A stretch of 64,000 nucleotides of DNA. Source: an uncultured Actinomycetes bacterium. GTDB lineage: Bacteria > Actinomycetota > Thermoleophilia > Solirubrobacterales > 70-9. The stretch spans positions 2,528,203 through 2,592,202 of the forward strand of contig OY969703.1 in assembly GCA_963702075.1 (NCBI GenBank), in the 5' to 3' direction. The notes beneath the pieces are model-generated. The model was not told the DNA's origin. It made no database searches and saw only the letters and a program-made list of their open reading frames with translations. Within the stretch, counting starts at the first letter, position 1; every line of letters begins with the position of its first letter. This document shows positions 34,051 to 46,538 of the stretch, piece by piece. The translations under genes were made by a program, and so were the position numbers.

Positions 34051-35004
34051 ATGACACGGACGGGAGCACGTGCATTGACGGTGCTGGCTGCGCCACTCCA
34101 CGTGCACATCCTCAAGGCGCTCGAGGAGGGACCCAAGGGGCTCCTCGATCTCCATCGCGCGGTTGGCTCGCCACCCCAGAGCACGATGCGCGTCTACACG
34201 CGAACACTCGAGGAGTTGGGGGTGCTCGAAAGGCGGCGCCAGAACGAATTTCCGGCGACCGCCGAGTATTCGATAACCCCGGCGGGAGAATCTCTGCTGG
34301 AGGTCGCGGGCCTCTTGCAGGAGTGGCTGTTGACTGCGCCAAACGGGCCGATCCTGCTCGGGAGCATGGCAGCCAAGAGCGGAGTCAAGGCGTTGGTCGG
34401 TGGTTGGTCCTCCCACATCGTCCGGGCCGTCGCGGCACGGGCCCTCTCGCTGACCGAACTCAACGTATTGATCCCCAAGATCAGCTACCCGAGCCTCGAG
34501 CGCAAGCTCAGCGCGATGAGAAGCGCGAGCCTGGTCGAACCGCAGCCCGGCAGCGGTCGCGGCACCCCATGCGGACCCACGGTCTGGCTGCGCCAGGCGA
34601 TGATTCCTCTCGCCTCCGCCTCGGCGTGGGAGCGGAAGTTCGCCTCCGAGTCGGCAACCCCTATAGGCCGCCTCGATGTCGAGGCGGCACTCCTGCTGTC
34701 TCTCCCGCTGATCGAGCTTGACCCCGGGCACAGCGGTCGCTGTCGGCTGTCGGTCGAGATACGGGGAGGCTCCTCCCCCGCCATGGCTGGAGCAATCGTG
34801 GCAATCGAGGAAGGCAAGGTCGTCTCCTGCACCTCTCGCCTGGATGGCGACGTCCAGGCGTCTGCCTCGGGCAGCGCCCTTGCCTGGATGCGCCAAATGA
34901 ACGGCGGACCCTCGGGCCAGCTCGAGATGGGCGGCGACCTGTCTCTTTCGATGGCGGTCACCAATGCGCTGAGGGAACTTCGAGGCGCTTTGTCCCCGAA
35001 TTGA
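34051..35004 (+). CDS. transcriptional regulator with two HxlR-type winged-helix domains plus an SCP2-like C-terminal domain
   Basis: 317 aa. The first wHTH is HILKALEEGPKGLLDLHRAVGSPPQSTMRVYTRTLEELGVLERR...EYSITPAG. The second, degenerate copy is at about aa 120-200. The C-terminus ...LEMGGDLSLSMAV is SCP2-like. Confidence 0.5.
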   Translation: MTRTGARALTVLAAPLHVHILKALEEGPKGLLDLHRAVGSPPQSTMRVYTRTLEELGVLERRRQNEFPATAEYSITPAGESLLEVAGLLQEWLLTAPNGPILLGSMAAKSGVKALVGGWSSHIVRAVAARALSLTELNVLIPKISYPSLERKLSAMRSASLVEPQPGSGRGTPCGPTVWLRQAMIPLASASAWERKFASESATPIGRLDVEAALLLSLPLIELDPGHSGRCRLSVEIRGGSSPAMAGAIVAIEEGKVVSCTSRLDGDVQASASGSALAWMRQMNGGPSGQLEMGGDLSLSMAVTNALRELRGALSPN

Positions 35005-35782: not shown

Positions 35783-36511
35783 TCAGCGGCGGGGGCCGGT
35801 GTTGCAGCCGTGGTCCCTGCCCCAGCCGCGTTGGCCGTTGCAGTAGTCGAAGCCGGGGCCCCCGTAGAGCTGATCGGCGGCGCGGCCGCCGTAGAGACGG
35901 TCGTTACCGGCGCCGCCATGGCAGCCGTCCTGGCCCGGGCCCATGATGCAGATGTCGCGGCCGGGGCCGCCCCAGCAGCCGTCGCTGCCGGCGCCGTGGT
36001 GGCAGAAATCGTTGCCGCGGCCGCCGACGCAGTCGCTGTTGCGGTTGCCGGTGATGCAGACGTCGTTGTTGCCCCCGCCGATGCAGCGGTTGCGGCGAGA
36101 GCCTTCGGAGAAGCAGATGTCCCGCTCGCCTTTGCCGACGAACTTGTCCGAGCCGCGGCCGAGGTGGACGACCAGGGGCAGGGGCAGGGTCCTCGTCACC
36201 TTGACCATGTCGCCCTTCGGCCCCATCTTGACTTCGATCGCACCGACGCCGCGAGTCGAGCAGACGGCCTTGCGGTGGCCGCGGGTGAAGTGGCAGCCGC
36301 GTGGGTGGTGGTGGGCCATGTTGCCCTTGACCACGAGCTTGTTGTGGCCGCGCGGGTGCAGCCTCAGCGTCGACCCCTTGTGGGAGCCGAAGATGACGAT
36401 TTTGGAGACAGACGTGGCGGCGGACGGAAGTGCCAGGAGGGCCACTACCGCGACCAAGCCGACCAGCAGCCTGCGGCCAGGGGGCAAACGCATCGGGCGC
36501 ATATTAATCAT
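35783..36511 (-). CDS. secreted protein with Cys-substituted RTX-like (GGxGxDxCx) calcium-binding repeats
   Basis: 242 aa. The signal peptide is LLVGLVAVVALLALPSAATS. Six repeats read GNNDVCITG / NRNSDCVGG / RGNDFCHHG / AGSDGCWGG / PGRDICIMG / PGQDGCHGG. Canonical GAGNDRLYGGRAADQLYGG follows. Confidence 0.6.
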   Translation of the reverse strand: MINMRPMRLPPGRRLLVGLVAVVALLALPSAATSVSKIVIFGSHKGSTLRLHPRGHNKLVVKGNMAHHHPRGCHFTRGHRKAVCSTRGVGAIEVKMGPKGDMVKVTRTLPLPLVVHLGRGSDKFVGKGERDICFSEGSRRNRCIGGGNNDVCITGNRNSDCVGGRGNDFCHHGAGSDGCWGGPGRDICIMGPGQDGCHGGAGNDRLYGGRAADQLYGGPGFDYCNGQRGWGRDHGCNTGPRR

Positions 36512-36664: not shown

Positions 36665-39600
36665 CTAGCGGCTCTTCTTAGAGCGCTTGCCGCCGCAGCG
36701 AGCCTTCAGCGGCGGGTTGAACACATGCCGCTTGCCGTTTTGCCCGGTAAAGCTGGCCTTCGCACGGTGGTTGCCTCGACAGATGTTGGTGCTGTTGACG
36801 AGCAGGCCCTTCTTGCCGCCCTGCATTTCGAGGACGAACTTGGTCACCGGGGCGTCGGGAACCGCTTCGAAGGAGTTGCGGATCCCTCCGTCGACCGAGT
36901 CGATCCGACCGACGAGGTCGATGTCCACCTTCGCCGAGTGCAGCGCGGCTACGAGGTCGGGTAGCGGATGATTGGACGAGCGCAGGTAGACGCGCCCGAC
37001 CAGCGGTTCGTCGAGTAGAGGAGATACCGCTCTCGCGCGGCCATAGATGGACCGCTTGGGGCACTGACTGCCGTTGCCGTTGCCAGCCGCGAACTGGACC
37101 CGGGTGCAAATCGTGCCGATGTGCCCCTGTTCCAGGAACTCGGAGTGGGGAAGTTTGACTACGGCTGCCCCGATGTTGGCGTCGCCTTTGCGGGCGGTGA
37201 GAACGGCTTTGAGCGCCGGATTGGCTCCGCGCCTGGTCCCGCCCTTGAGGGTCAGCGCCAGCTTCGGCTTGAAGCCGAGACGGGCACAGTCGGCGGCCTG
37301 GAAGGGCGAGGTGACGTCAACTGGCGAAAGGCCGGAAACAGAAGCCGAAGCGGTCATCCGTTCACAGCTGGTCGGATTGAGGACGAAGTCCTTGCGGTCG
37401 ACGTAGATCCGGATGTCCCGCGCGTGGACGACGATCCCCTGCAGGATGTGCGGGATCGGGTCTCCGCTCGAGCCGTCGGTCGAGACTTCGGCCGTGTTCG
37501 GATCGACCTTCAGCCCTTGGCGGATGACGACGTTGCCGAGGTCGAAAGGACCGACCTTGGCCGTCGTGATCGCCACGACCGACAGCTTGGTCCCTTTATA
37601 CGGGCCGGCGAGATAGACCTTGCCCGGGGCGTAGGTCAAGGTCGGCCCCACTCCGGCACCCACCAGGGTCCGCCCGATCTGCGAGGCATCCGGGCAGCTC
37701 GGGTGTTCGAGCTCTTCCTGACCGCCGTTCGGCCCCGTCCTCGTGCGGGCCGCGGCAATCGCCGCATCCGAGCAGAACGGAATGCCGGACAGATTCCCGA
37801 TCACGCCCTTCGGCAGCTTCAGGGAGAAGGTCGTGAATTCCTGTTCCCCGTCCTGTCGCGTCAGTCGCACGTCCAGCGGCGAGTATTTACCGGCAGCGTT
37901 GTTCTCCGTCCCGGCGGTGAAGCCCGGCTTGAACGGCGGCGTCCCGCTCGGGCAAGCACTCCCGTTGGGCCCATGATCGACCGTGAACGAACTCGTCCTG
38001 GTGACGATCTCGTTTGGCTGTGGGTTGTTCGGATCCGCAGCGTTCCAAGGCGTGAACTTCGCCGTGATGTCGTACTTGCCGCACGTCGCCGGCATGACCA
38101 GCGGCGCCCGATCGCCTTCTTTGAAGTGCAGGTTGAAGGTGCTGAATGGGATCTGCGGCAGGTTGTCGAAGGTGGAAACCAACTGCCCCGTAGCCGGGTT
38201 CAGCTCCACCTTGCCAGCTTGTTTGACCAGGATTCCGCGGTCGGGAATCTTCGCCACCACATAGAGGGCGAGCAACGACCCGAAGGGGTTGTCATAAGGC
38301 GCGGCCACGTAGACAGATCCGTGAGCTTCCTCTTCGAGCAGCGGCGTCGTGATGTCGACGTTCCCGATCTTCGAGGATTCAGGACAACCTTCACCGGGCG
38401 TCGAATCGAACCTCTCCCGCGCGTAATCCGTCGGCGTGCAGGCGTCCAACCCATTTGCCTGCGACGGATTCACCGTTATCCCTTCGGGCAGCGTCACTTC
38501 AACCTTCTTCGCCTGCCCTTCGGCGACCTTCGCGTTCGGGTCCAGCAGCCCAGAGTTTGGCATGTCAACGCGGAAATCAAGTCCGCTCGCCGTTCCGGCA
38601 TCTGGGTTGGTCGGAGACGCCGCGATGCTCGGATTGAAAGGCACTTGGTTGCAGCCGACCATGTTCGGCTGCGTCGAGTTCGCTTGCTGGACCACGGTTC
38701 CGAGCGGGACATTCCAGGGTTCGAGTTCGACTCGGAAGTCGAGAGGACTTGCGCAGGAGACCGGCTGGCGAAGGAAAGCGGTTTCACCGAGGCCATTCGG
38801 CCGCCCGCAGGTTCCCTGTGCCCGGAAGTACACGCAGTTCCAGCCCCTCGCGCTGTCATGACGGGAGTCCCCCGGCGAGCCCCAAAGGCTCACCGTGCTC
38901 GAGAGGAAGTTGGCGACCTGGGTCGCGTTGTTGACCAATGCGACGATGCGGTAGCCGTTGTCGGGATCAACAGCCGTATCGATGACCACCGGGGTCCCGA
39001 CTGCCATGAAGCCAAAGCGGGCCGGCTCTCCCTCGGCGGGCACAAGATTGAAAACCGGCACAGCAACGCGGAGCAGGCCGAAGGTCGCCGGTTCGATGAT
39101 GGTGACCGTAGTGACCCCGACGGCGGTGGCATCGGGACATTCGTTAGTCAGTTCTTCGGTCGTGGTGAGGAAGCTCACCATCGGGCATTTGGGAGTGGCG
39201 GTTGCGCTGCCCACAAAACCCGCCGGCAAGGAGAACCGCACGTTTCGGGGGAGCCCCGGCTGTTCGATGAAAGCGTCTCTGCGGTTGCCTCCGTTCAGGG
39301 CCGCCGTGTTGAGCTGGATGGTCGTCGTCAGCTGAAAAGGATGGGCTCCAGCCCGGGTCGTGGGAGCGCCGCCCTCTTCTTCTGATTGTGAGGAGGTCTG
39401 TTCGATGCCGAAGGGGGTGGGTTCCGGGCTGACTTTGACGACCTGGGGGACCGAGAGCGAGGGGGCATTTGCGCCTGAAACGGTGACAGTGCCCGGCGCC
39501 CCGGCGACCGGCGGTTCCCCAATCAGGTTGGCGAGGATTTCGACTTCGATCGCTTCATAGGAGGGGAGCGTCTTTTCGAAGGTGCAGGAGACTTCTACCG

Positions 39601-40339
39601 GCGATTCGACCGTGCAGTCCACTCCGCCGATCGTTCCCTGGGCACCGGCGAACGCTTCGACTCCAGCTGCTTCCACACCCTCCGGCAGGTGATCGACGAT
39701 GGTAACCGGAGTTTCCGTGGCATCAACCGGAGCATCGCCAAGGTTCGTCAGGGTCAGGACGAGCCGGCCGCTGCCACCGTTCTCCAGAATTTTGGCTTTC
39801 GCGCTCCCCAGATTTCCGAAAACTTCGTTTTCGACTGGCTTGACACTAATGACGGGCTCGGCATGCTTCGGAACCGTGATCACGAACGGGGCACCGCCGA
39901 CAGGCCCGCCCGTAACTTTGACAGCATTCGTGCCGAATGCGACTTCAAGAAGCGCCTTTAGTTGTGCCGCAGTTTCGGTAGGCGGAAAGCCGGTGTTGTT
40001 TTCGCAGAAGACTTCCCCGAAGAAGTTCGCGGTGCCGAGGCAGCCGATCAGTTTGCCCCCGACCCTGAGTTCGATCGCCGCGATCTGAGATCCGAAGAGT
40101 TCCTTGGTTCCGGTTTCGATTTCCTGGACGTTGTCGGTTGGCTCCCAGAGGTTCGTCGGCCGACTACCGGTCAGAACCTGCCACCAAGGTTGAGGCGCCG
40201 CGGAGGCTTGGGCAGGCAGCACCGCGAGGGCGCCGAAAGCGAGGATGACGAGGGTGAGCTGCCTGAGCCGTAGGAACATGGTCGAGAACTCCCTGGTTGC
40301 GGCACGATCGAGATCGGGGGTCTGCTGCACGCGCCTCAT
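36665..40339 (-). CDS. large secreted protein of unknown function: DUF11/CARDB-like N-terminal region plus four tandem copies of an unrecognised module of about 170-200 aa (Cys-x(14-25)-Cys-Pro)
   Basis: 1224 aa. The ATG at 40339 overlaps the upstream stop (ATGA); an alternative ATG is at 40279 (MFLRLRQLTLVILAFGALAVLPAQASA, a signal peptide). Coding periodicity is consistent throughout. The repeats are described in the findings. Confidence 0.8.
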   Translation of the reverse strand: MRRVQQTPDLDRAATREFSTMFLRLRQLTLVILAFGALAVLPAQASAAPQPWWQVLTGSRPTNLWEPTDNVQEIETGTKELFGSQIAAIELRVGGKLIGCLGTANFFGEVFCENNTGFPPTETAAQLKALLEVAFGTNAVKVTGGPVGGAPFVITVPKHAEPVISVKPVENEVFGNLGSAKAKILENGGSGRLVLTLTNLGDAPVDATETPVTIVDHLPEGVEAAGVEAFAGAQGTIGGVDCTVESPVEVSCTFEKTLPSYEAIEVEILANLIGEPPVAGAPGTVTVSGANAPSLSVPQVVKVSPEPTPFGIEQTSSQSEEEGGAPTTRAGAHPFQLTTTIQLNTAALNGGNRRDAFIEQPGLPRNVRFSLPAGFVGSATATPKCPMVSFLTTTEELTNECPDATAVGVTTVTIIEPATFGLLRVAVPVFNLVPAEGEPARFGFMAVGTPVVIDTAVDPDNGYRIVALVNNATQVANFLSSTVSLWGSPGDSRHDSARGWNCVYFRAQGTCGRPNGLGETAFLRQPVSCASPLDFRVELEPWNVPLGTVVQQANSTQPNMVGCNQVPFNPSIAASPTNPDAGTASGLDFRVDMPNSGLLDPNAKVAEGQAKKVEVTLPEGITVNPSQANGLDACTPTDYARERFDSTPGEGCPESSKIGNVDITTPLLEEEAHGSVYVAAPYDNPFGSLLALYVVAKIPDRGILVKQAGKVELNPATGQLVSTFDNLPQIPFSTFNLHFKEGDRAPLVMPATCGKYDITAKFTPWNAADPNNPQPNEIVTRTSSFTVDHGPNGSACPSGTPPFKPGFTAGTENNAAGKYSPLDVRLTRQDGEQEFTTFSLKLPKGVIGNLSGIPFCSDAAIAAARTRTGPNGGQEELEHPSCPDASQIGRTLVGAGVGPTLTYAPGKVYLAGPYKGTKLSVVAITTAKVGPFDLGNVVIRQGLKVDPNTAEVSTDGSSGDPIPHILQGIVVHARDIRIYVDRKDFVLNPTSCERMTASASVSGLSPVDVTSPFQAADCARLGFKPKLALTLKGGTRRGANPALKAVLTARKGDANIGAAVVKLPHSEFLEQGHIGTICTRVQFAAGNGNGSQCPKRSIYGRARAVSPLLDEPLVGRVYLRSSNHPLPDLVAALHSAKVDIDLVGRIDSVDGGIRNSFEAVPDAPVTKFVLEMQGGKKGLLVNSTNICRGNHRAKASFTGQNGKRHVFNPPLKARCGGKRSKKSR

Positions 40340-43300
40340 CGCGAGGCCTTTCGGCCGTGGCCGGCTTTCCTGTGCTGGTGCTTGTGCTTGACGCAGCGAG
40401 ACTTGCCGTGACGGCGCACCTTCCGCTCGCCCTTTCGGCAGTGAACCTTTGCCGCCCCGACATTGCCTGGCCCAGAGAAGACCGAGCTCGACGGCGTGGG
40501 GTCATTCGGCGGCGTGCCATGTGCCTGGCATGCTTCGCCGAGGCATTCGACGCGAGGAGTGAGGCTCCCGGGACTGCCGTTAACGCGGGCATCGTAGACA
40601 TCCAGCTCCGAGTCTTCATCGACAGGATTGAGCCTCGCCGGCGTCATGAAGAACACGTCGTCGCCGCTTTCGCTGGCATCGAGGAATCCGGCTTCGCTTT
40701 TCCCGGTGCCCGAGGAGAGCAGCGACACGCAGCCGCCGGCACTCCTCGCGGTAGCCGCATCGCCGGAGGCCTGGCTGCAACTGCCCAGGACCGCGGGCTC
40801 GTACTGGTAGACATCCCATCCGCCGTTCGCGTCGGCTGGCACCAGCGAATCCGCAGCGTTGAAGAAAACGCGACCATTGTCGAGCACGGCCCGGGGGGAG
40901 TAGAGCGATATCTCGCTCAAGACATCGGAGACCGTGGGCTCGGGCAGAACGGCCTCGATCTGGTCCCCTTCCCACTGGCGGCGTGGATCCACCAGCTTGA
41001 TCACCCCCGCCAGTTCTCCTTCGGGAGCGGCGCCACTCGGCTTACAGGAGATACAGGCCAATTGGTCGACGTTTGCGTCGTAGCGATAGACCCGCTGGAC
41101 TGGTTCGCCGGTTTTGGAATCAAGGTTGTCGTTGCCGGCGAGAGGGCGCTCGGAGGCGAAGGCAAAGAAGCGGCCGCTGGGCGATGCGGCGGCACTCAGG
41201 CGTGAGGCGATCCCCTGCGAAGTACCCCAGTCATGTTCGTCTTCTTTGGAGAGAGTTCCTATGTAACGTACGCCCTCGCCCTTGCGCCAGACGTAGAGGT
41301 TTGGCTTTTCGGGGGCGGCGGTTTCACCCTCTTGGTTGGGGGCAGGGTCCAGAACCCCAAGAGCAACGAAGTAGACCGTCAAACCGTCATCGCCGACGCC
41401 GGGCGCAAGGCCCTGGACTTCGGCGCTTTCTCCGGAGAGCCCGGCGGGAACACTGATGTCGACGAGGCTGCTGCAACCAGATGCGACCGAGCCAGCCGGG
41501 ATCTCACACCGATAGAGGTCGCGTCCGCTCGGGCTGGCGTCGCCCGTCAGCTGCTGGGAATCGGTGAAGAAGACCGCGGTTCCATCCGTGCTCGCCCCCT
41601 GAAAGATCGGTTCTGACGCACCCGAACCGCCTCCCCCAAGGGGTACGTCGATCCGAACCGTTTCCTCGGCCACCGTGTCGCGCAGGTAGAGCGCGGTGAA
41701 GTTGTGAGCGCTCCAAAAGATGCGCGACCCGTCGCTCGAGATCGCGTTGTCAACCGTGTGGCCGGTCGAGATTTGATGGCCTCCCGAGCCGAGGGTTTCG
41801 GTATCCGCGAGCCCACCACCTTCCGTCGAGGGCAGAACGCTAATCGGCCGCAGCCCTCCCGCGCTCCATAGGTAGAGGCTGTTGAACGGCGGCGGCGGCG
41901 CCCCCTCGACAAGCGGCACCTGAGCATTCAGGACCACGTGCGCCATATCGGGCGTTGCCCCTGCGATGTTTACGGGGCCGAGCGGGTTTCGTGGATCGCC
42001 ACCGAATTCCGTACCGCCGGGAACGTTCCCTGCGGTGATCAGCGGCGTGAAGACAGGCGGGTCCGTGCTCTGCCGGAGATACGGGGTTCTTTCAGTCGCC
42101 TGGGAAGAAAGCCCCACGGTGGTGCGCGGTTCGACCAAACCCGCAGACAGGTCGCGGCCGAAGAGCTTGTATTCGCTCAGCGAGCCAACTGGAATCTGGG
42201 TGACGCTGCCATTGGGAAGGGTGATGTCCTTGGAACTCCACCCCGTTGCGGCCCGGCGAGCAAAGACCGTCGAAGCTTCAGCCGTTCGGTTCCCCGCCGG
42301 CTCTGGTTCGATCGACCCGCGGCTGGCGTAGACGATGCTTTCCCCGTTCGCGGCAGCCTGAACATGGGCATTTTGCGAGCCCTGGAGCACCGCGCCATGC
42401 TTATTCGGAGGCGACACGATCTCCCAGGCTCGCGAGTCGCTCAGCTGAAAACCGAGCGAACTGGTCTCGGTTCTGAACGTGTGGTTGGATTCCAGGGCCA
42501 GATTGCTTCCTTCTGAGTTTTCCGCGAGAACCCGGTAGTGGTAGACCGTGTTGGGGGCGAGGCCGGTTAGAGCCTGGGACACGCGGACACCCTTGTCGCC
42601 GCTGCCAATATCCACGGCAGTGGCAGGAACTGAGGTGCAGGGGTCGAGCGAGCAGTCTTCGAGCCCATATTGGAACACGTAGGTCGTCTCGTGAGAGCCG
42701 GGATTGATTTCAGCAGTCAACGTCGCCGAGTCGCCGCTGACTTCGGTGACGGAAATATGTTCGACCCGAGGCGGTCCCTCATATTTTTCTCTGGGCTTGA
42801 AGATCTCGACCCGGGAGGGCTCGCCGGTCACCGTGTTGGCGACGAAGATAGCCGTGTTTTCACCGTCGATTCCAACTCCTTGGGCAAATTCGACTTCACC
42901 TTCCTCGCCCACTCCTGCAAAGGTCGCCAGCAGGTTTCCCGCTTCGTCATACCATGCGATCTTGGGATCGGACACCTTCTGGGCAACGTAGACGTCATTC
43001 GTTGCTGGATCGACCCCCACCGCATAGGCAGCTGTCGCATCGACAGGTTCCGAGGCGGCAGTGTACGTCGTTAGAGGCGTAACCGGATACACCGAAGGGG
43101 TGAACTTAAGGACGGGTGCTCCGGCGGCATTTCCAAGATTGAGAAACAGGTCGCCATTCATGTCGACAGCGCCGTTGGCAGGATGGGGAGTGGAAAACAC
43201 CGTGATCTGTTCACCGGTTGAGGCAAAGATCGTCACCGTTTCGGCGAGAGTGTCGATTGCGTAGATATCGCCATTCGCGTCCACGGCCACGCCCGTGAGT

Positions 43301-43767
43301 TTGGCGAAGCCAGTAAGTCGATCAGTACCGGCGTCGGAACCGGCCGTGAACTCGGCCGGTTCCCCGTCCGGTTGGAAGACACGCAGGGAATTGGCGTCGG
43401 TGACGTAGAACTCATGGGTGGTCGAGTTGACAGCCACTTGACTCTCACCCGATCCCGCAGAGAGACCTAGACCGCCGATCACGTTCCCCGAGATGTAGCC
43501 AGCGGACCCTCCAAAGTTCGCCGGTTCTCCTCCCGAGTCGAATCTCAGCAGCGAGCCGTTGCCGCGATCGAGAACGTAGACCCAGTGTTCTTGCTGATCA
43601 ACTGAAATCGATCCCGCTTCTACGAAACTGCCTGGACCTATCCCGTCAGGTCCAAAGCTGCCGCTGAATTCGGGTGATTCGGCCGCAGAAGCCGACCCCG
43701 TGACGCTGAGGACGATCAATAGGCAACCAATCAACAGTGCCCCGCCGCTAAAGAGGCGTGCTCGCAT
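40336..43767 (-). CDS. large secreted protein: NHL-type beta-propeller, FN3-like domain, TolB/PD40-like beta-propeller and a basic Cys-containing tail
   Basis: 1143 aa from the ATG at 43767, which has GGAAGGGG 7 nt upstream. The signal peptide is MRARLFSGGALLIGCLLIVLSVTGSASA. NHL-like blades include YVLDRGNGSLLRFD, FYVTDANSLRVFQPDGE and IYAIDTLAETVTIF. The FN3-like part is LTAEINPGSHETTYVFQYG...NTVYHYRVLAENSEGS. PD40-like repeats include SSDGSRIFWSA, STDGTAVFFTD and DNGRVFFNAAD...WDVYQYE. Confidence 0.8.
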   Translation of the reverse strand: MRARLFSGGALLIGCLLIVLSVTGSASAAESPEFSGSFGPDGIGPGSFVEAGSISVDQQEHWVYVLDRGNGSLLRFDSGGEPANFGGSAGYISGNVIGGLGLSAGSGESQVAVNSTTHEFYVTDANSLRVFQPDGEPAEFTAGSDAGTDRLTGFAKLTGVAVDANGDIYAIDTLAETVTIFASTGEQITVFSTPHPANGAVDMNGDLFLNLGNAAGAPVLKFTPSVYPVTPLTTYTAASEPVDATAAYAVGVDPATNDVYVAQKVSDPKIAWYDEAGNLLATFAGVGEEGEVEFAQGVGIDGENTAIFVANTVTGEPSRVEIFKPREKYEGPPRVEHISVTEVSGDSATLTAEINPGSHETTYVFQYGLEDCSLDPCTSVPATAVDIGSGDKGVRVSQALTGLAPNTVYHYRVLAENSEGSNLALESNHTFRTETSSLGFQLSDSRAWEIVSPPNKHGAVLQGSQNAHVQAAANGESIVYASRGSIEPEPAGNRTAEASTVFARRAATGWSSKDITLPNGSVTQIPVGSLSEYKLFGRDLSAGLVEPRTTVGLSSQATERTPYLRQSTDPPVFTPLITAGNVPGGTEFGGDPRNPLGPVNIAGATPDMAHVVLNAQVPLVEGAPPPPFNSLYLWSAGGLRPISVLPSTEGGGLADTETLGSGGHQISTGHTVDNAISSDGSRIFWSAHNFTALYLRDTVAEETVRIDVPLGGGGSGASEPIFQGASTDGTAVFFTDSQQLTGDASPSGRDLYRCEIPAGSVASGCSSLVDISVPAGLSGESAEVQGLAPGVGDDGLTVYFVALGVLDPAPNQEGETAAPEKPNLYVWRKGEGVRYIGTLSKEDEHDWGTSQGIASRLSAAASPSGRFFAFASERPLAGNDNLDSKTGEPVQRVYRYDANVDQLACISCKPSGAAPEGELAGVIKLVDPRRQWEGDQIEAVLPEPTVSDVLSEISLYSPRAVLDNGRVFFNAADSLVPADANGGWDVYQYEPAVLGSCSQASGDAATARSAGGCVSLLSSGTGKSEAGFLDASESGDDVFFMTPARLNPVDEDSELDVYDARVNGSPGSLTPRVECLGEACQAHGTPPNDPTPSSSVFSGPGNVGAAKVHCRKGERKVRRHGKSRCVKHKHQHRKAGHGRKASR

Positions 43768-44096
43768 GAACTGTTCCCCTTCCTTCGCCGGTGTAACCGA
43801 CCGATACGCCCCGCGACTCGCGTCCCCGAGCCGGTTCCCCCCCTTGAGGGATGAGCTGAGCTGATTCCCACTCAGAAACCTAACGACTCCGGAGCAAACG
43901 GGGAAACTTTGTAGCCCAGACAAAAGTTCTGTCCTTGGCAGCGGGCTCAAAAGTTCCTGGAATTATCACTACAGCAAATATTCGCACGTGCATCCCTGAG
44001 CCCTCGACAGCTCCTCTTTTCATGTCTCTAAATGGGGTGGGGTGGGACCTATGCGGCCCCGCCCCTTCAATCCGTACTTCCTTGCTTGATATCGGT

Positions 44097-44792
44097 CTAG
44101 CATGTGAACGTCATATTCTGAGCGAAAGTCAACGTCCTTTCGCCATCCTGGGAAGCCGTCGTAGCTGCGCCTCCGTTCTGGCTCGAGGTGAGAGCGAATT
44201 TCGTGCCGGTTGTTGTGACCTGAGTCCACTTCTGTGTGCCGGTCGCCGGCGATTCGTACTTCACCGTCGCGGTTTTCTGTACTGCGCCGCACGTGGTCGG
44301 CGCGGTCATTTCACCGATGATGCCGTTGCCGTTGATGACCTCGCTCACCAAACCTCCCCCGCAGATGAACGAGGCAAAGTGCCCGGCGTTCGGTGTGAGC
44401 AAGATGCCGCGGACCTCGGGTGGCCCTTTCTCGAGGATGACGTTGTGCCCGATCAGATCTGTCGTTTTGATCGAGCCAGAGGCCTGGCCGGTGGACGTGC
44501 ATTTGCTGCCGAAGAGGTTCTCCGTGCAGTTGCTGAACGTCAGTGTGACTTCTGACGATGTCGTGGCCGTGGTTTGCTGGCCGGCGCCGGCGACAGAGGT
44601 ACAGGTCATTTTCAGGCTCGAACCGTCGGCTGTTACGGGGACCGTGTTCCCGATACTGGCCAGATTGAACGCAACCGGGAAGCTACCGTTCGCCGGATCG
44701 AGGCTCCATTCTCCGGCCGTAGCCAGGGCCGGCAGGACGAACATCGCTGCGCTGATCGCTGAGAGGGCGAGCAGGAGGATCTTCTTGCTCAT
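44097..44792 (-). CDS. secreted six-Cys protein, GEW family, tandem copy 1
   Basis: 231 aa. The signal peptide is MSKKILLLALSAISAAMFVLPALATA, followed by GEWSLDP. It has six Cys and ends ...MTFTC. It is about 90% identical to copy 2. Confidence 0.8.
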   Translation of the reverse strand: MSKKILLLALSAISAAMFVLPALATAGEWSLDPANGSFPVAFNLASIGNTVPVTADGSSLKMTCTSVAGAGQQTTATTSSEVTLTFSNCTENLFGSKCTSTGQASGSIKTTDLIGHNVILEKGPPEVRGILLTPNAGHFASFICGGGLVSEVINGNGIIGEMTAPTTCGAVQKTATVKYESPATGTQKWTQVTTTGTKFALTSSQNGGAATTASQDGERTLTFAQNMTFTC

Positions 44793-45069
44793 GTTTGCCT
44801 TTCACGTCTGGTCTCGGCAGGAGATCTGCGATCTGTTTGCCGGACTATTGTGTGCGGGTCGGCCGCTCTTTCGTCTGCCAACCCACCTTTCCCCCACATC
44901 TCTAGCCGCACACGGCTAAGAGCACAAAGATATCTGAGTTTTTTAGCGCAGTCACGTGATCACCTAGCGGAATGTCCCCGCACTCCCCAGAACAACGGGA
45001 CATCACCCTCGCAAAGGCACGCCTAATTGAGTTCTGCATGAACCTGACTCCTATTGGTGAGCGGAACCA

Positions 45070-45100
45070 CAAAAAGGCCGGGGGACAACTGGCCCCCGGC
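45070..45100 (-). terminator. rho-independent terminator after GEW copy 2
   Basis: The minus-strand RNA reads GCCGGGGG-CCAGUUGU-CCCCCGGC followed by CUUUUUG. It lies 30 nt downstream of the stop at 45130. Confidence 0.7.
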
Positions 45101-45129
45101 TCATTATTCAGTGCTAGATCGTCAACTTC

Positions 45130-45822
45130 CTAGCATGTAAACGTCATGTTTTCGGCGAACGTCACAGTCCCTTCGCCGTCCTGGGAAGCCGTCGTAGCTG
45201 CGCCTCCGTTCTGGCTCGAGGTGAGAGCGAATTTCGTGCCGGTTGTTGTGACCTGAGTCCACTTCTGTGTGCCGGTCGCCGGCGATTCGTACTTCACCGT
45301 CGCGGTTTTCTGTACTGCGCCGCACGTGGTCGGCGCGGTCATTTCACCGATGATGCCGTTGCCGTTGACGACAACGGCAACGAGTCCCCCGCCGCAGGAG
45401 AACGAAGCAAAGTGCCCGGCGTTCGGTGTGAGCAAGATGCCGCGGACCTCGGGCGGCCCTTTCTCGAGGATGACGTTGTGCCCGATCAGATCTGTCGTTT
45501 TGATCGAGCCAGAGGCCTGGCCGGTGGACGTGCATTTGCTGCCGAAGAGGTTCTCCGTGCAGCCGCTGAACGTCAGTGTGACGTTGCTCGATGTCGTGGC
45601 CGAGGTCTGTGAGCCGTTACCGGCGGCACTGGTGCAGGTCACTTTCAGGCTCGAACCGTCGGTTGTCAGGGTCGTGTTCCCGATACTGGCCAGATTGAAC
45701 GCAACCGGGAAGCTACCGCTCGCCGGATCGAGGCTCCATTCCCCGGCCGACGCAACCGCCGGCAGGGCGAACATCGCTGCGCTGATCGCCGAGAGGGCGA
45801 GCAGGATGATCTTCTTGCTCAT
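45130..45822 (-). CDS. secreted six-Cys protein, GEW family, tandem copy 2
   Basis: 230 aa. The signal peptide is MSKKIILLALSAISAAMFALPAVASA, followed by GEWSLDP. The Cys scaffold matches copy 1. Confidence 0.8.
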   Translation of the reverse strand: MSKKIILLALSAISAAMFALPAVASAGEWSLDPASGSFPVAFNLASIGNTTLTTDGSSLKVTCTSAAGNGSQTSATTSSNVTLTFSGCTENLFGSKCTSTGQASGSIKTTDLIGHNVILEKGPPEVRGILLTPNAGHFASFSCGGGLVAVVVNGNGIIGEMTAPTTCGAVQKTATVKYESPATGTQKWTQVTTTGTKFALTSSQNGGAATTASQDGEGTVTFAENMTFTC

Positions 45823-46082
45823 GCTTTACCTTTCGATTCAGGTCTCGGCAGGATGGTCTGGAACCTGTTCTTGCCGGACCAGTTGTGCGGGGTCGGCGGA
45901 CGCTTCCGTCGACCCGCTCTTTCCTCTACATCCCTAGCCGAGACGCAACTAATGGATCAAGGCATCCTGTTCATTCAGGGATATCCGTTGGTTCGGGCCT
46001 ACGCACTACCCCTGCAAATAGGCCAAAACCAATCTTTAGCTTTCGCAGAACTGTGCCCTCAAGTTAGGTCGGCGCTGGCGGA

Positions 46083-46538
46083 TCAGAGGATCCGAGGGCA
46101 GGTTTTCAAGCCGTAAGCCTTTGCTTCGCGCTCGAACTGAGGGACGCTTGACTGGAGCGCCTTTTTAGGTTCTTCTTCCATCATCTGGCTCGCGTGAGAC
46201 AGCGTGCTGACCATGTGGGCTACTTCGGCTCGATCCTTTTCGGGGGCCATAAGGGTTTCCAGTTGTTCCGCCTGGCCCTTCAGCGCTGGCGCGATTACTT
46301 CACGAAAACCGTCTTCAAGCTTGCTTTCAGCTTCAGCGGGGCCGCCGGGTAATTCCTTCCTCCAGGCATCGGCCGCGGCTTCCCGCTCCTGGGTTGCCTT
46401 CGTACAGATCGCGTCGGCTTGCTTGATGAACTGTGCCTTGGTGAGAGGCGCCGACGTTGCTTCGTCTCCCGAGCTTCCGCAGCCAGCTGCCATGCAAACC
46501 GCTGCTACCACTCCTATAACCATGATCAGCCTGTACAT
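46083..46538 (-). CDS. lipoprotein of unknown function
   Basis: 151 aa, with GGGAGGAG upstream. MYRLIMVIGVVAAVCMAAGCGSSGDE is a lipobox-like signal. The mature part is helical and charged. Confidence 0.65.
   Translation of the reverse strand: MYRLIMVIGVVAAVCMAAGCGSSGDEATSAPLTKAQFIKQADAICTKATQEREAAADAWRKELPGGPAEAESKLEDGFREVIAPALKGQAEQLETLMAPEKDRAEVAHMVSTLSHASQMMEEEPKKALQSSVPQFEREAKAYGLKTCPRIL

Follow-up and report, generated by a model that had tools for sequence, protein, structure and literature searches.

The locus described here poses a simple question: what is the cysteine-bearing unit that recurs along a long secreted protein of an uncultured Solirubrobacterales soil bacterium, and what is the protein that carries it likely to do? 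A first-pass annotation of the window (the whole stretch of DNA analysed, 64,000 nucleotides) had described four tandem copies of an unrecognised module at 36695-39352 on the minus strand (residues 330-1215 of a 1,224-aa ORF), and had read them as an old, disulfide-stabilised extracellular domain. The 64-kb window contains no second module-carrying gene. The features of the module protein are as follows.

36665..40339, minus strand: whole ORF of the module protein, 1,224 aa, from the ORF list
40199..40279, minus strand: Sec-type signal peptide, residues 21-47 (MFLRLRQ, a hydrophobic core, PAQASA), from hydrophobicity and AxA motifs
39419..40198, minus strand: acidic variable N-terminal head, residues 48-307, pI 4.4, no Pfam or NCBIfam match
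38645..39418, minus strand: module M1 (start cap), residues 308-565, with C385, C401, C529 and C563, from hhalign, profile and AlphaFold element order
37940..38644, minus strand: module M2 (first half of the extendable unit), residues 566-800, with C634, C652, C753 and C796, from blastp and hhalign
37280..37939, minus strand: module M3 (second half of the extendable unit), residues 801-1020, with C856, C882, C992 and C1018, from blastp and hhalign
36695..37279, minus strand: module M4 (basic end cap), residues 1021-1215, with C1078, C1093, C1187 and C1215, pI 10.3, from blastp and hhalign
36668..36694, minus strand: Lys/Arg-rich C-terminal tail GGKRSKKSR, read from the sequence

The first ATG of the ORF overlaps the upstream stop codon as ATGA. 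The real start codon is probably M21 at 40279, with AGGGAG 9 nt before that ATG; starting there, the product has 1,204 aa, as in databases (P0001, also 1,204 aa, is 100% identical). The single 19-residue window with a Kyte-Doolittle hydrophobicity above 1.6 is the N-terminal signal segment, in which an AxA cleavage motif can be read. The protein has no LPXTG motif, sortase signal, second hydrophobic segment or membrane helix, and Pfam gave no match to SLH, LysM, GW or choline-binding domains. Given one signal segment with AxA, no other hydrophobic segment and an even count of invariant Cys, the protein is predicted to be extracellular.

The four modules, of ~200-260 residues each, account for three-quarters of the secreted ~1,200-residue protein, in keeping with the original description, and every Cys position and motif quoted there is found in the sequence. 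Significant internal similarity is present: in blastp, M2 matches M3 over 227 aa (E 1.8e-9) and also M4 (E 2.3e-9), and the orthologue profiles align in hhalign with probabilities of 97.1% for M2-M3 (E 6.6e-11) and 97.7% for M2-M4 (E 2.3e-12). By these alignments M2, M3 and M4 are clearly homologous, far beyond chance. M1 is a divergent copy, with a weaker but real relationship. It aligns with M3 at 67% probability (hhalign, E 5e-5); a profile made from M2-M4 alone scores 7.7 bits on its residues 364-413, against at most 4.4 bits in 500 shuffles; and it has its secondary-structure elements in the same order as the other modules in the AlphaFold model, with Cys at equivalent positions. The layout proposed for the repeat stands, with its boundaries revised to residues 308-565, 566-800, 801-1020 and 1021-1215. 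The duplications are also old, as had been suggested: identity among the four modules is 22-26%, and their order is fixed across 150 representatives of the family. Residues invariant across module types are F, P, L, P, C, C, G, G, P, C and C, with no Lys, Asn or Asp. A PFxP-type linker opens each module 3-5 residues past the last Cys of the preceding one, and with linkers this short and ending in PFxP, the array should be stiff. M1 additionally carries an insert of ~36 aa with a C502/C511 pair and the invariant motif WGxPxDxxHxxxRG.

The first-pass annotation counted a Cys pair and one closing Cys per module. Its positions were right, but the invariant number is four: C753, C992 and C1187 are each the third Cys of their module, and a fourth follows 26-44 residues later (C563, C796, C1018 and C1215). 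In an alignment of 57 orthologues, all 20 Cys from C242 onward are invariant. Exactly four Cys are present in 607 of 635 modules (96%), and all six modules that miss the third have lost the fourth as well. It seems from the sequences that the four Cys probably form two disulfides per module. A bond between Cys 1 and Cys 2, the latter within the CP motif, would close off the loop that follows the LPxG strand and carries the helix, and one between Cys 3 and Cys 4 would close the C-terminal strands. A disulfide-stabilised extracellular domain fits both the Cys invariance and the signal peptide, with the bonds themselves predicted. In Actinobacteria, exported proteins including pilins are oxidised via MdbA/VKOR (PMC9974433, PMC5478893).

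Does the module belong to a known family? The claim that it does not was borne out by each library searched. Even at E<=10, neither the complete protein nor any one of its modules matched a Pfam entry, and NCBIfam returned nothing for the protein or its modules. A set of 35 module sequences had no Pfam or NCBIfam match at any threshold, DUF11/CARDB included; nor did Cna_B, Collagen_bind, SpaA, AgI_II_C2 and similar Pfam families match any module at E<=10. Pfam and NCBIfam searches of giant relatives at lenient thresholds gave nothing relevant. Profiles of the full-length protein and of the module, run against PDB sequences, produced only noise (ankyrin, thioredoxin, a capsid protein), which we rejected.

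AlphaFold modelled the full chain with a pLDDT of 75 and a pTM of 0.61, showing the same element order in all four modules, and M2 alone with a pLDDT of 86.8 and a pTM of 0.84. The modelled module has ~12 strands and a single short helix arranged about an Ig-like core. Foldseek, run with M2 and with the full model, yielded core resemblance and no whole-domain match. The M2 model had no match at E<=0.001 in PDB or BFVD, and its best PDB partners (E >=8e-3) overlap the core only, at a query-normalised TM-score <=0.34, so that ~100 of the 235 M2 residues have no counterpart. The high-probability partners are exclusively Ig-like sandwiches of surface proteins, namely BslA, YcnI, the N2 domains of CNA/CNM, the C-terminal domains of AgI/II, and RrgA; GFP and PilZ, which headed the M2 list, were rejected for their low probability, and the full model retrieved generic multi-sandwich proteins (TM-score 0.06-0.11), which were likewise set aside. 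The module is thus a ~220-residue beta-sandwich family found in no searched library, and in that sense a new family, whereas its class of architecture, the modelled Ig-like sandwich core, is familiar and not new.

The module profile finds 5,959 protein clusters, and those that are named all belong to Solirubrobacterales, Thermoleophilia or other Actinomycetota. The module protein has more than 800 full-length homologues. The arrangement of modules, read on 150 representatives of clusters made at 50% identity, follows M1-(M2-M3)n-M4, with up to about 31 modules per protein and 30 or more in some relatives. The order 1-2-3-4 occurs in 116 of the 150, the long proteins all alternate 2-3-2-3, and M1 comes first in most representatives with a complete N-terminus, including all 116 four-module ones. 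Identity is 40-70% between modules two or four positions apart and 25-30% between those one or three apart. Arrays lengthen by adding M2-M3 pairs between an M1 start cap and an M4 end cap. Copy numbers follow a 2+2n rule and are not simply multiples of four. The ~400-aa M3-M4 pieces that made up most of a second protein search, with the module profile, are truncated gene calls and not a two-module family. Giant relatives reach ~7,000 residues, and several of them lack a head altogether. A ~2.5-Mb genome carries several paralogous loci; the genome scan was run with the full-length alignment and is hence biased towards close relatives.

The two ends of the protein differ in charge. Across the family, heads have a median pI of 4.3, M1 of 4.7, M2 of 4.6, M3 of 5.5 and M4 of 10.0, the median net charge of M4 being +15, and the C-terminal tail of 57 orthologues has a median length of 10 aa, 50% of it Lys and Arg. 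From its composition, the basic M4 together with this tail is a candidate for a new anchor. The N-terminal head is the least conserved part of the protein, and conservation rises towards M3 and M4. The second half of the head, with C242/C252, reads like a DUF11/CARDB-type sandwich, and we take the LPxG-then-Cys-pair layout of the modules to resemble this DUF11-like domain; hhalign of the domain against the modules gave a probability below 1%. In relatives, the head is an NHL propeller, an Ig_2 or fn3-like domain, or absent, and no enzyme domains were seen among these heads.

Three further secreted proteins are encoded upstream on the same strand.

40336..43767, minus strand: secreted propeller partner, 1,143 aa, from Pfam, PDB sequence search and synteny
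44097..44792, minus strand: small secreted six-Cys protein, paralogue 2, 231 aa
45130..45822, minus strand: small secreted six-Cys protein, paralogue 1, 230 aa, 90% identical to paralogue 2

The partner combines an NHL beta-propeller with an fn3-like domain and a second propeller region of PD40-like type, plus a basic tail that contains Cys, and it matches the NHL domains of TRIM2, TRIM3 and TRIM71 in PDB sequences. Of 77 loci, nearly all have its gene directly upstream of the module gene and in the same orientation, and six representatives (P0177, P0196, P0165, P0181, P0182 and P0143) have its domains fused to modules. About half of the loci have homologues of the small six-Cys proteins, a tiny and fast-evolving family, encoded upstream of the gene pair, and in the window a terminator-like hairpin (45077-45100) follows the paralogue 1 gene. 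The idea that the module itself occurs in the small proteins or the partner was rejected (hhalign probability 0.2%).

The closest known counterparts are fibrillar adhesin-like proteins, which combine a stalk with an adhesive head (Monzon et al. 2021, PMC8286594). They are recognised as rigid extracellular rods of one or a few identical chains that each run the full length of the fibril, with tandem stalk domains <35 residues apart, a terminal adhesive region and a surface anchor (PMC8286594). The protein studied here likewise is predicted to be extracellular and has a single long chain and a tandem beta-sandwich stalk with very short linkers, its four contiguous modules lying 3-5 residues apart, and copy number varies among its relatives from 4 to about 31. 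It differs in having no known surface anchor or adhesive domain, in a module that lies outside the 82 Pfam stalk families (PMC8286594) and outside all of Pfam, and in neighbours that are 22-30% identical and follow a strict grammar of start cap, alternating pair and end cap instead of being near-identical copies. With the DEv-IgG domains of MSCRAMM/CNA-type proteins and of the antigen I/II C-terminus, and with the CnaB domains of pilins, all from Gram-positive bacteria, it shares an Ig-like sandwich core (Foldseek probability 0.9-1.0), monoderm hosts and, as we infer, covalent intradomain cross-links that stiffen a surface fibre. Those cross-links are Lys-Asn/Asp isopeptide bonds, whereas here they would be disulfides; the module is also ~100 residues larger, reaches a query-normalised TM-score of at most 0.34 and comes with no sortase signal. 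BslA and YcnI (DUF1775) give the best target-normalised overlap with the M2 model (TM-score 0.49-0.58 over ~125 residues), but they are single small domains that form no tandem arrays, and neither the BslA hydrophobic cap nor the YcnI copper site is conserved in the modules. The MG arrays of alpha-2-macroglobulin and complement are also long beta-sandwich arrays, and C5, TEP1 and A2ML1 are among the Foldseek matches of the full model; yet TM-scores are only 0.06-0.08, and the module protein has neither a CxEQ thioester motif nor an A2M/MG Pfam match.

We therefore favour, at a probability of roughly 0.6, a reading in which the module is a new stalk domain, carried by a fibrillar-adhesin-like surface rod that does without sortase, a function that we infer from its architecture. 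The gene product would be a Sec-exported, single-chain surface rod with a variable acidic head followed by four modules. The strongly basic M4 and the Lys/Arg tail would hold the C-terminal end on the anionic envelope without sortase, while the acidic, fast-evolving N-terminal end projects outward, where it may offer for binding either its own head or the two-propeller partner encoded alongside it. Disulfides would confer mechanical and protease resistance, as isopeptide bonds do in Gram-positive pilins and adhesins. By extension, the thousands of related proteins are probably rigid cell-surface rods.

Against an adhesin rod, the protein has no recognised adhesive domain and no recognised anchor, the full-chain pTM of 0.61 could reflect a compact arrangement instead of a rod in the model, and an acidic protein, not the envelope, could be what the basic M4 binds. 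Repeats of typical fibrillar adhesins are near-identical and unstable; the old, position-specific repeats seen here suit a fixed structural machine no less than they suit an adhesin. It is conceivable, although unlikely, that the module protein helps to build a lattice or sheath of the envelope, or a multi-protein appendage, in which M1-(M2-M3)n-M4 serves as a spacer or strut of defined length and the rod assembles with the small six-Cys proteins, possibly a major subunit, and with the propeller protein. The fixed order of old, diverged modules, the conserved set of small-protein, propeller and module genes, the headless giants and the full-length pTM are all consistent with this, as is the hairpin after the first small gene, terminator-like hairpins being common after major-subunit genes. 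About half of the loci, however, have no small proteins, and the family of these proteins is tiny and evolves fast; the many paralogous pairs per genome and the variable N-terminus look more like diversified binding proteins, and Pfam found no SLH or other lattice-type domains.

That the module protein is instead a soluble secreted scaffold or binder, for example of soil polymers or metals, with modules that bind ligand and form no stalk, appears improbable. The missing anchor, the copper-binding YcnI among the Foldseek partners and the propeller partners, which are often ligand binders or enzymes, would suit it, and JGI labels giant relatives as CusF, Pfam CusF_Ec summing to 34 bits on P0123. 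No single CusF stretch passes threshold, though, and the window protein has no CusF match at E<=10, so we judge the label an artefact of summed weak matches. Moreover, most of the invariant residues are Cys, Gly or Pro, which are structural; beyond the paired Cys, no His/Met/Cys metal-site pattern is conserved across module types, and the basic cap and tail are kept family-wide. It is harder still to regard the module as a very diverged copy of a described Ig-like stalk family (DUF11/CARDB, CnaB/SpaA or the DEv-IgG CNA type). The DUF11-like layout and the high-probability partial Foldseek matches to CNA N2 and the AgI/II C-domains point that way, but the empty Pfam and NCBIfam searches of 35 modules, the hhalign probability below 1% for the N-terminal domain, the TM-scores <=0.34 and the missing LPXTG argue against it. 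Several spurious long ORFs overlap the region in other frames, as they might if the repeat were a chance or compositional product of a high-GC ORF; this explanation can be considered refuted by the >800 full-length homologues, hhalign E values of 1e-11 to 1e-12, the confident AlphaFold model of M2 and the 5,959 clusters.

Solirubrobacterales are among the commonest soil Actinomycetota. The lineages concerned here are uncultured, with small (~2.5-Mb) genomes that each carry several copies of the ~7-kb gene pair around the module. Defining the module domain would give an annotation to thousands of 'hypothetical' proteins, including giants of ~7,000 residues, and would supply a further stalk family to the pipelines for adhesin discovery, by which these proteins are now missed. 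On the surface-rod reading, the family offers a natural example of predicted disulfides in the stabilising role held elsewhere by isopeptide bonds, and of a capped, alternating-pair repeat grammar, together with a possible new electrostatic cell-wall anchor. More speculatively, and at low odds, the small six-Cys proteins may join the M1-(M2-M3)n-M4 proteins and the two-propeller partners obligate to these in an undescribed, sortase-independent surface appendage of Thermoleophilia, a disulfide-stapled rod whose length the number of M2-M3 pairs would set genetically, with dedicated start and end caps and electrostatic attachment to the envelope through the basic cap and tail. If true, this would amount to a novel kind of cell-surface architecture in monoderms, beyond another adhesin.

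The repeat lies in a single open reading frame, and the interval singled out by the first-pass annotation (36695-39352) maps exactly onto residues 330-1215 of the secreted product, hereafter the module protein. All 22 cysteines are found in the translation, as are the four C-P motifs quoted there.

Table. The module protein gene and its neighbours.
36665-40339, minus strand: module protein, 1,224 aa, four tandem modules (M1-M4)
40336-43767, minus strand: partner, secreted; NHL propeller, fn3-like domain, second (PD40-like) propeller region, basic tail
44097-44792 and 45130-45822, both minus strand: small six-Cys proteins, secreted tandem paralogues, 90% identical, ending ...MTFTC
46083-46538, minus strand: lipoprotein, 151 aa, lipobox …AAGC
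35783-36511, minus strand: RTX-type protein, 242 aa, secreted, Pfam HemolysinCabind
34051-35004, plus strand: HxlR-family regulator, just beyond the 3' end of the cluster, convergent

The stop codon of the partner gene shares bases with the first ATG of the module frame (ATGA overlap, 40336-40339). A second ATG, 60 nt further in (M21, at 40279), is preceded by a better ribosome-binding site (AGGGAG) and begins a typical signal peptide; database annotation agrees with this start, as a 1,204-aa version that is 100% identical (P0001). Residue numbers in this text are those of the 1,224-aa frame, as in the first-pass annotation.

The four-module internal repeat proved real by pairwise blastp, profile-profile comparison, shuffling and the order of elements in the full-length AlphaFold model. 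M2 aligned with M3 across 227 residues (E 1.8e-9) and with M4 (E 2.3e-9). When 57 full-length orthologues (62-86% identity) were aligned, the alignment (A1) split by module and the resulting profiles compared, M2-M3 reached 97.1%, M2-M4 97.7% and M1-M3 67%, and the N-terminal region stayed below 1% against any module. M1 is the divergent copy; its residues 364-413, which span the core from LPxG through C..CP to G, scored 7.7 bits with a profile of M2, M3 and M4 only (best of 500 shuffles, 4.4 bits). The modules first described stand, but their limits required revision, to 308-565 (M1), 566-800 (M2), 801-1020 (M3) and 1021-1215 (M4), each opened by PFxP/GFKP just 3-5 residues past the last Cys of the preceding module. 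In the full-length AlphaFold model (pLDDT 74.9, pTM 0.61) all modules share, in this order, three strands, a short helix between Cys 1 and Cys 2, and eight or nine further strands. MAFFT alignment places the four Cys of M1-M4 in register and assigns an additional pair, C502/C511, to an insert of ~36 residues in M1. This M1-specific region (residues 480-525; window about 38765-38902, minus strand) carries an invariant W-G-x-P-x-D-x-x-H-x-x-x-R-G ahead of C502 and C511, and could be a candidate ligand or metal site.

More than 800 homologues of the full protein were found, the best 120 of which are ~1,200 aa long and labelled hypothetical, the named ones all being from Solirubrobacterales. An exhaustive HMMER search with the module profile retrieved 5,959 clusters (50% identity) at E<=1e-3, of which 2,134 pass the stricter limit of E<=1e-30, with 3 to 32 matched stretches per protein and lengths up to 7,161 aa; where a name is given, it is Solirubrobacterales, Thermoleophilia, Actinomycetota or, for a partial sequence, Rubrobacteraceae. 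GTDB species genomes yielded 349 matches when scanned with patterns from close orthologues, and the 76 loci kept all come from Solirubrobacterales or Actinomycetota MAGs; because of those patterns the scan sets no bound on the family's range. One genome of ~2.5 Mb holds up to six or more module loci. With type-specific HMMs, every module was assigned a type in 150 distant representatives of 50%-identity clusters: the order is 1-2-3-4 in 116, and long proteins, with up to about 31 modules, all read 1-(2-3)n-4 or a truncation thereof (123234 and 12323234, for example). Pairwise identity independently confirms this alternation, since it peaks between modules two or four positions apart (40-70%; 25-30% for modules one or three apart). 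The expansions are old, with a within-type identity of 37-63%.

All 20 cysteines from C242 onward are invariant among the 57 orthologues, and the positions invariant across module types are F, P (linker), L-P, Cys 1, Cys 2 (followed by P), G, G, P, Cys 3 and Cys 4. Exactly four conserved Cys and no extras occur in 607 of the 635 module instances of the representatives; the six modules without Cys 3 all lack Cys 4 too, and retain Cys 1 and Cys 2. This pattern of loss, the even Cys count and export point to two predicted disulfides per module, Cys 1-Cys 2 and Cys 3-Cys 4. Exported proteins are oxidised by MdbA/VKOR in Actinobacteria (PMC9974433, PMC5478893).

The inability to place the module in a known family was upheld in all resources searched. 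Pfam gave no match at E<=10 for the whole protein or any module, and no family came up consistently among 35 module sequences; NCBIfam gave no match, PDB sequence searches returned noise only, and the confident M2-only AlphaFold model (pLDDT 86.8, pTM 0.84) had no Foldseek match at E<=0.001 in PDB or BFVD. High-probability matches of M2 were all partial and only to Ig-like sandwiches (BslA, YcnI, CNA/CNM N2, antigen I/II C-domains, RrgA), with TM-scores up to 0.58 normalised by target and <=0.34 by query. By these partial matches the module core is an Ig-like sandwich as used in Gram-positive surface proteins, and about 100 of the 235 residues modelled for M2 are without a solved counterpart. 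For the full-length model, too, Foldseek matches were confined to multi-sandwich proteins of a generic kind and had very low TM-scores. The module protein has no thioester motif. Two giant module arrays outside the window, P0123 (4,032 aa) and P0400 (5,288 aa), bear the JGI name 'Cu/Ag efflux protein CusF'; this is probably a mis-annotation, as Pfam CusF_Ec reaches 34 bits solely by summing sub-threshold stretches, which map to central hairpins of M2-type modules.

Charge is polarised along the module protein, the pI running from 4.4 in the head (the region before M1) through 4.85, 4.6, 7.3 and 10.3 in M1-M4 to 12 in the tail. Family-wide medians are 4.3 for the head and 4.7, 4.6, 5.5 and 10.0 for the modules, with a median net charge of +15 on M4. 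Beyond the last Cys, orthologues have a tail of about 10 residues, half of them Lys/Arg; neither an LPXTG motif nor a second hydrophobic segment is present in the module protein. Conservation climbs from 0.58 at the N-terminus to 0.83 in M3 and M4. Elsewhere in the family the head is Ig_2, fn3-like or missing, and no enzyme domain was seen.

In nearly all of 77 loci a homologue of the partner gene directly precedes the module gene in the same orientation, and partner domains are fused N-terminal to modules in six representatives. The C-terminal tail of the partner (window 40336-43950, minus strand) contains Cys and is strongly basic (…CVKHKHQHRKAGHGRKASR), like that of the module protein, and the two may share one attachment mode. 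Genes of the small six-Cys type are present in about half of the loci; the two proteins match nothing in Pfam or PDB, and just 28 homologues were found, all of the same lineage. Terminator-like hairpins are common after major-subunit genes, and a strong one (45077-45100) stands behind the first small six-Cys gene (45130-45822). Over the partner gene and the genes of the small proteins (42000-46000) GC content drops to about 0.59-0.60, from 0.67-0.71 on either side. The RTX-like protein and the lipoprotein often neighbour the module gene. RTX homologues occur nearby in many Solirubrobacterales loci; in the RTX-type protein Cys recurs every 9 residues (C133, 143, 152, 161, 170, 179, 188, 197), so that Cys takes the core place in the nonapeptide repeat that a hydrophobic residue usually fills, and the protein may form a disulfide-laddered beta-roll. 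Several related loci have a lipoprotein homologue upstream of their small-protein genes, and the lipoprotein may belong to the same cluster; the HxlR-family gene is conserved at a comparable place in several such loci.

The best-supported reading is that the module is a new stalk domain, probably disulfide-stapled. Judged from sequence and models, the module protein behaves like a fibrillar adhesin, a class defined in PMC8286594, but lacks the known anchor of that definition, and its head, which gave no Pfam or NCBIfam match, would be the candidate adhesive region. For the old, position-specific module repeats, a structural strut or appendage component is an equally good fit. The domain family, its grammar, Cys pattern, charge polarity and obligate propeller partner are solid results; for function, we infer a surface rod. 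Under the stalk reading, the modules would build a stiff rod of variable length with dedicated caps, whose basic C-terminal end would hold it on the anionic envelope, and which would display either its acidic, variable head or the partner with the propellers.
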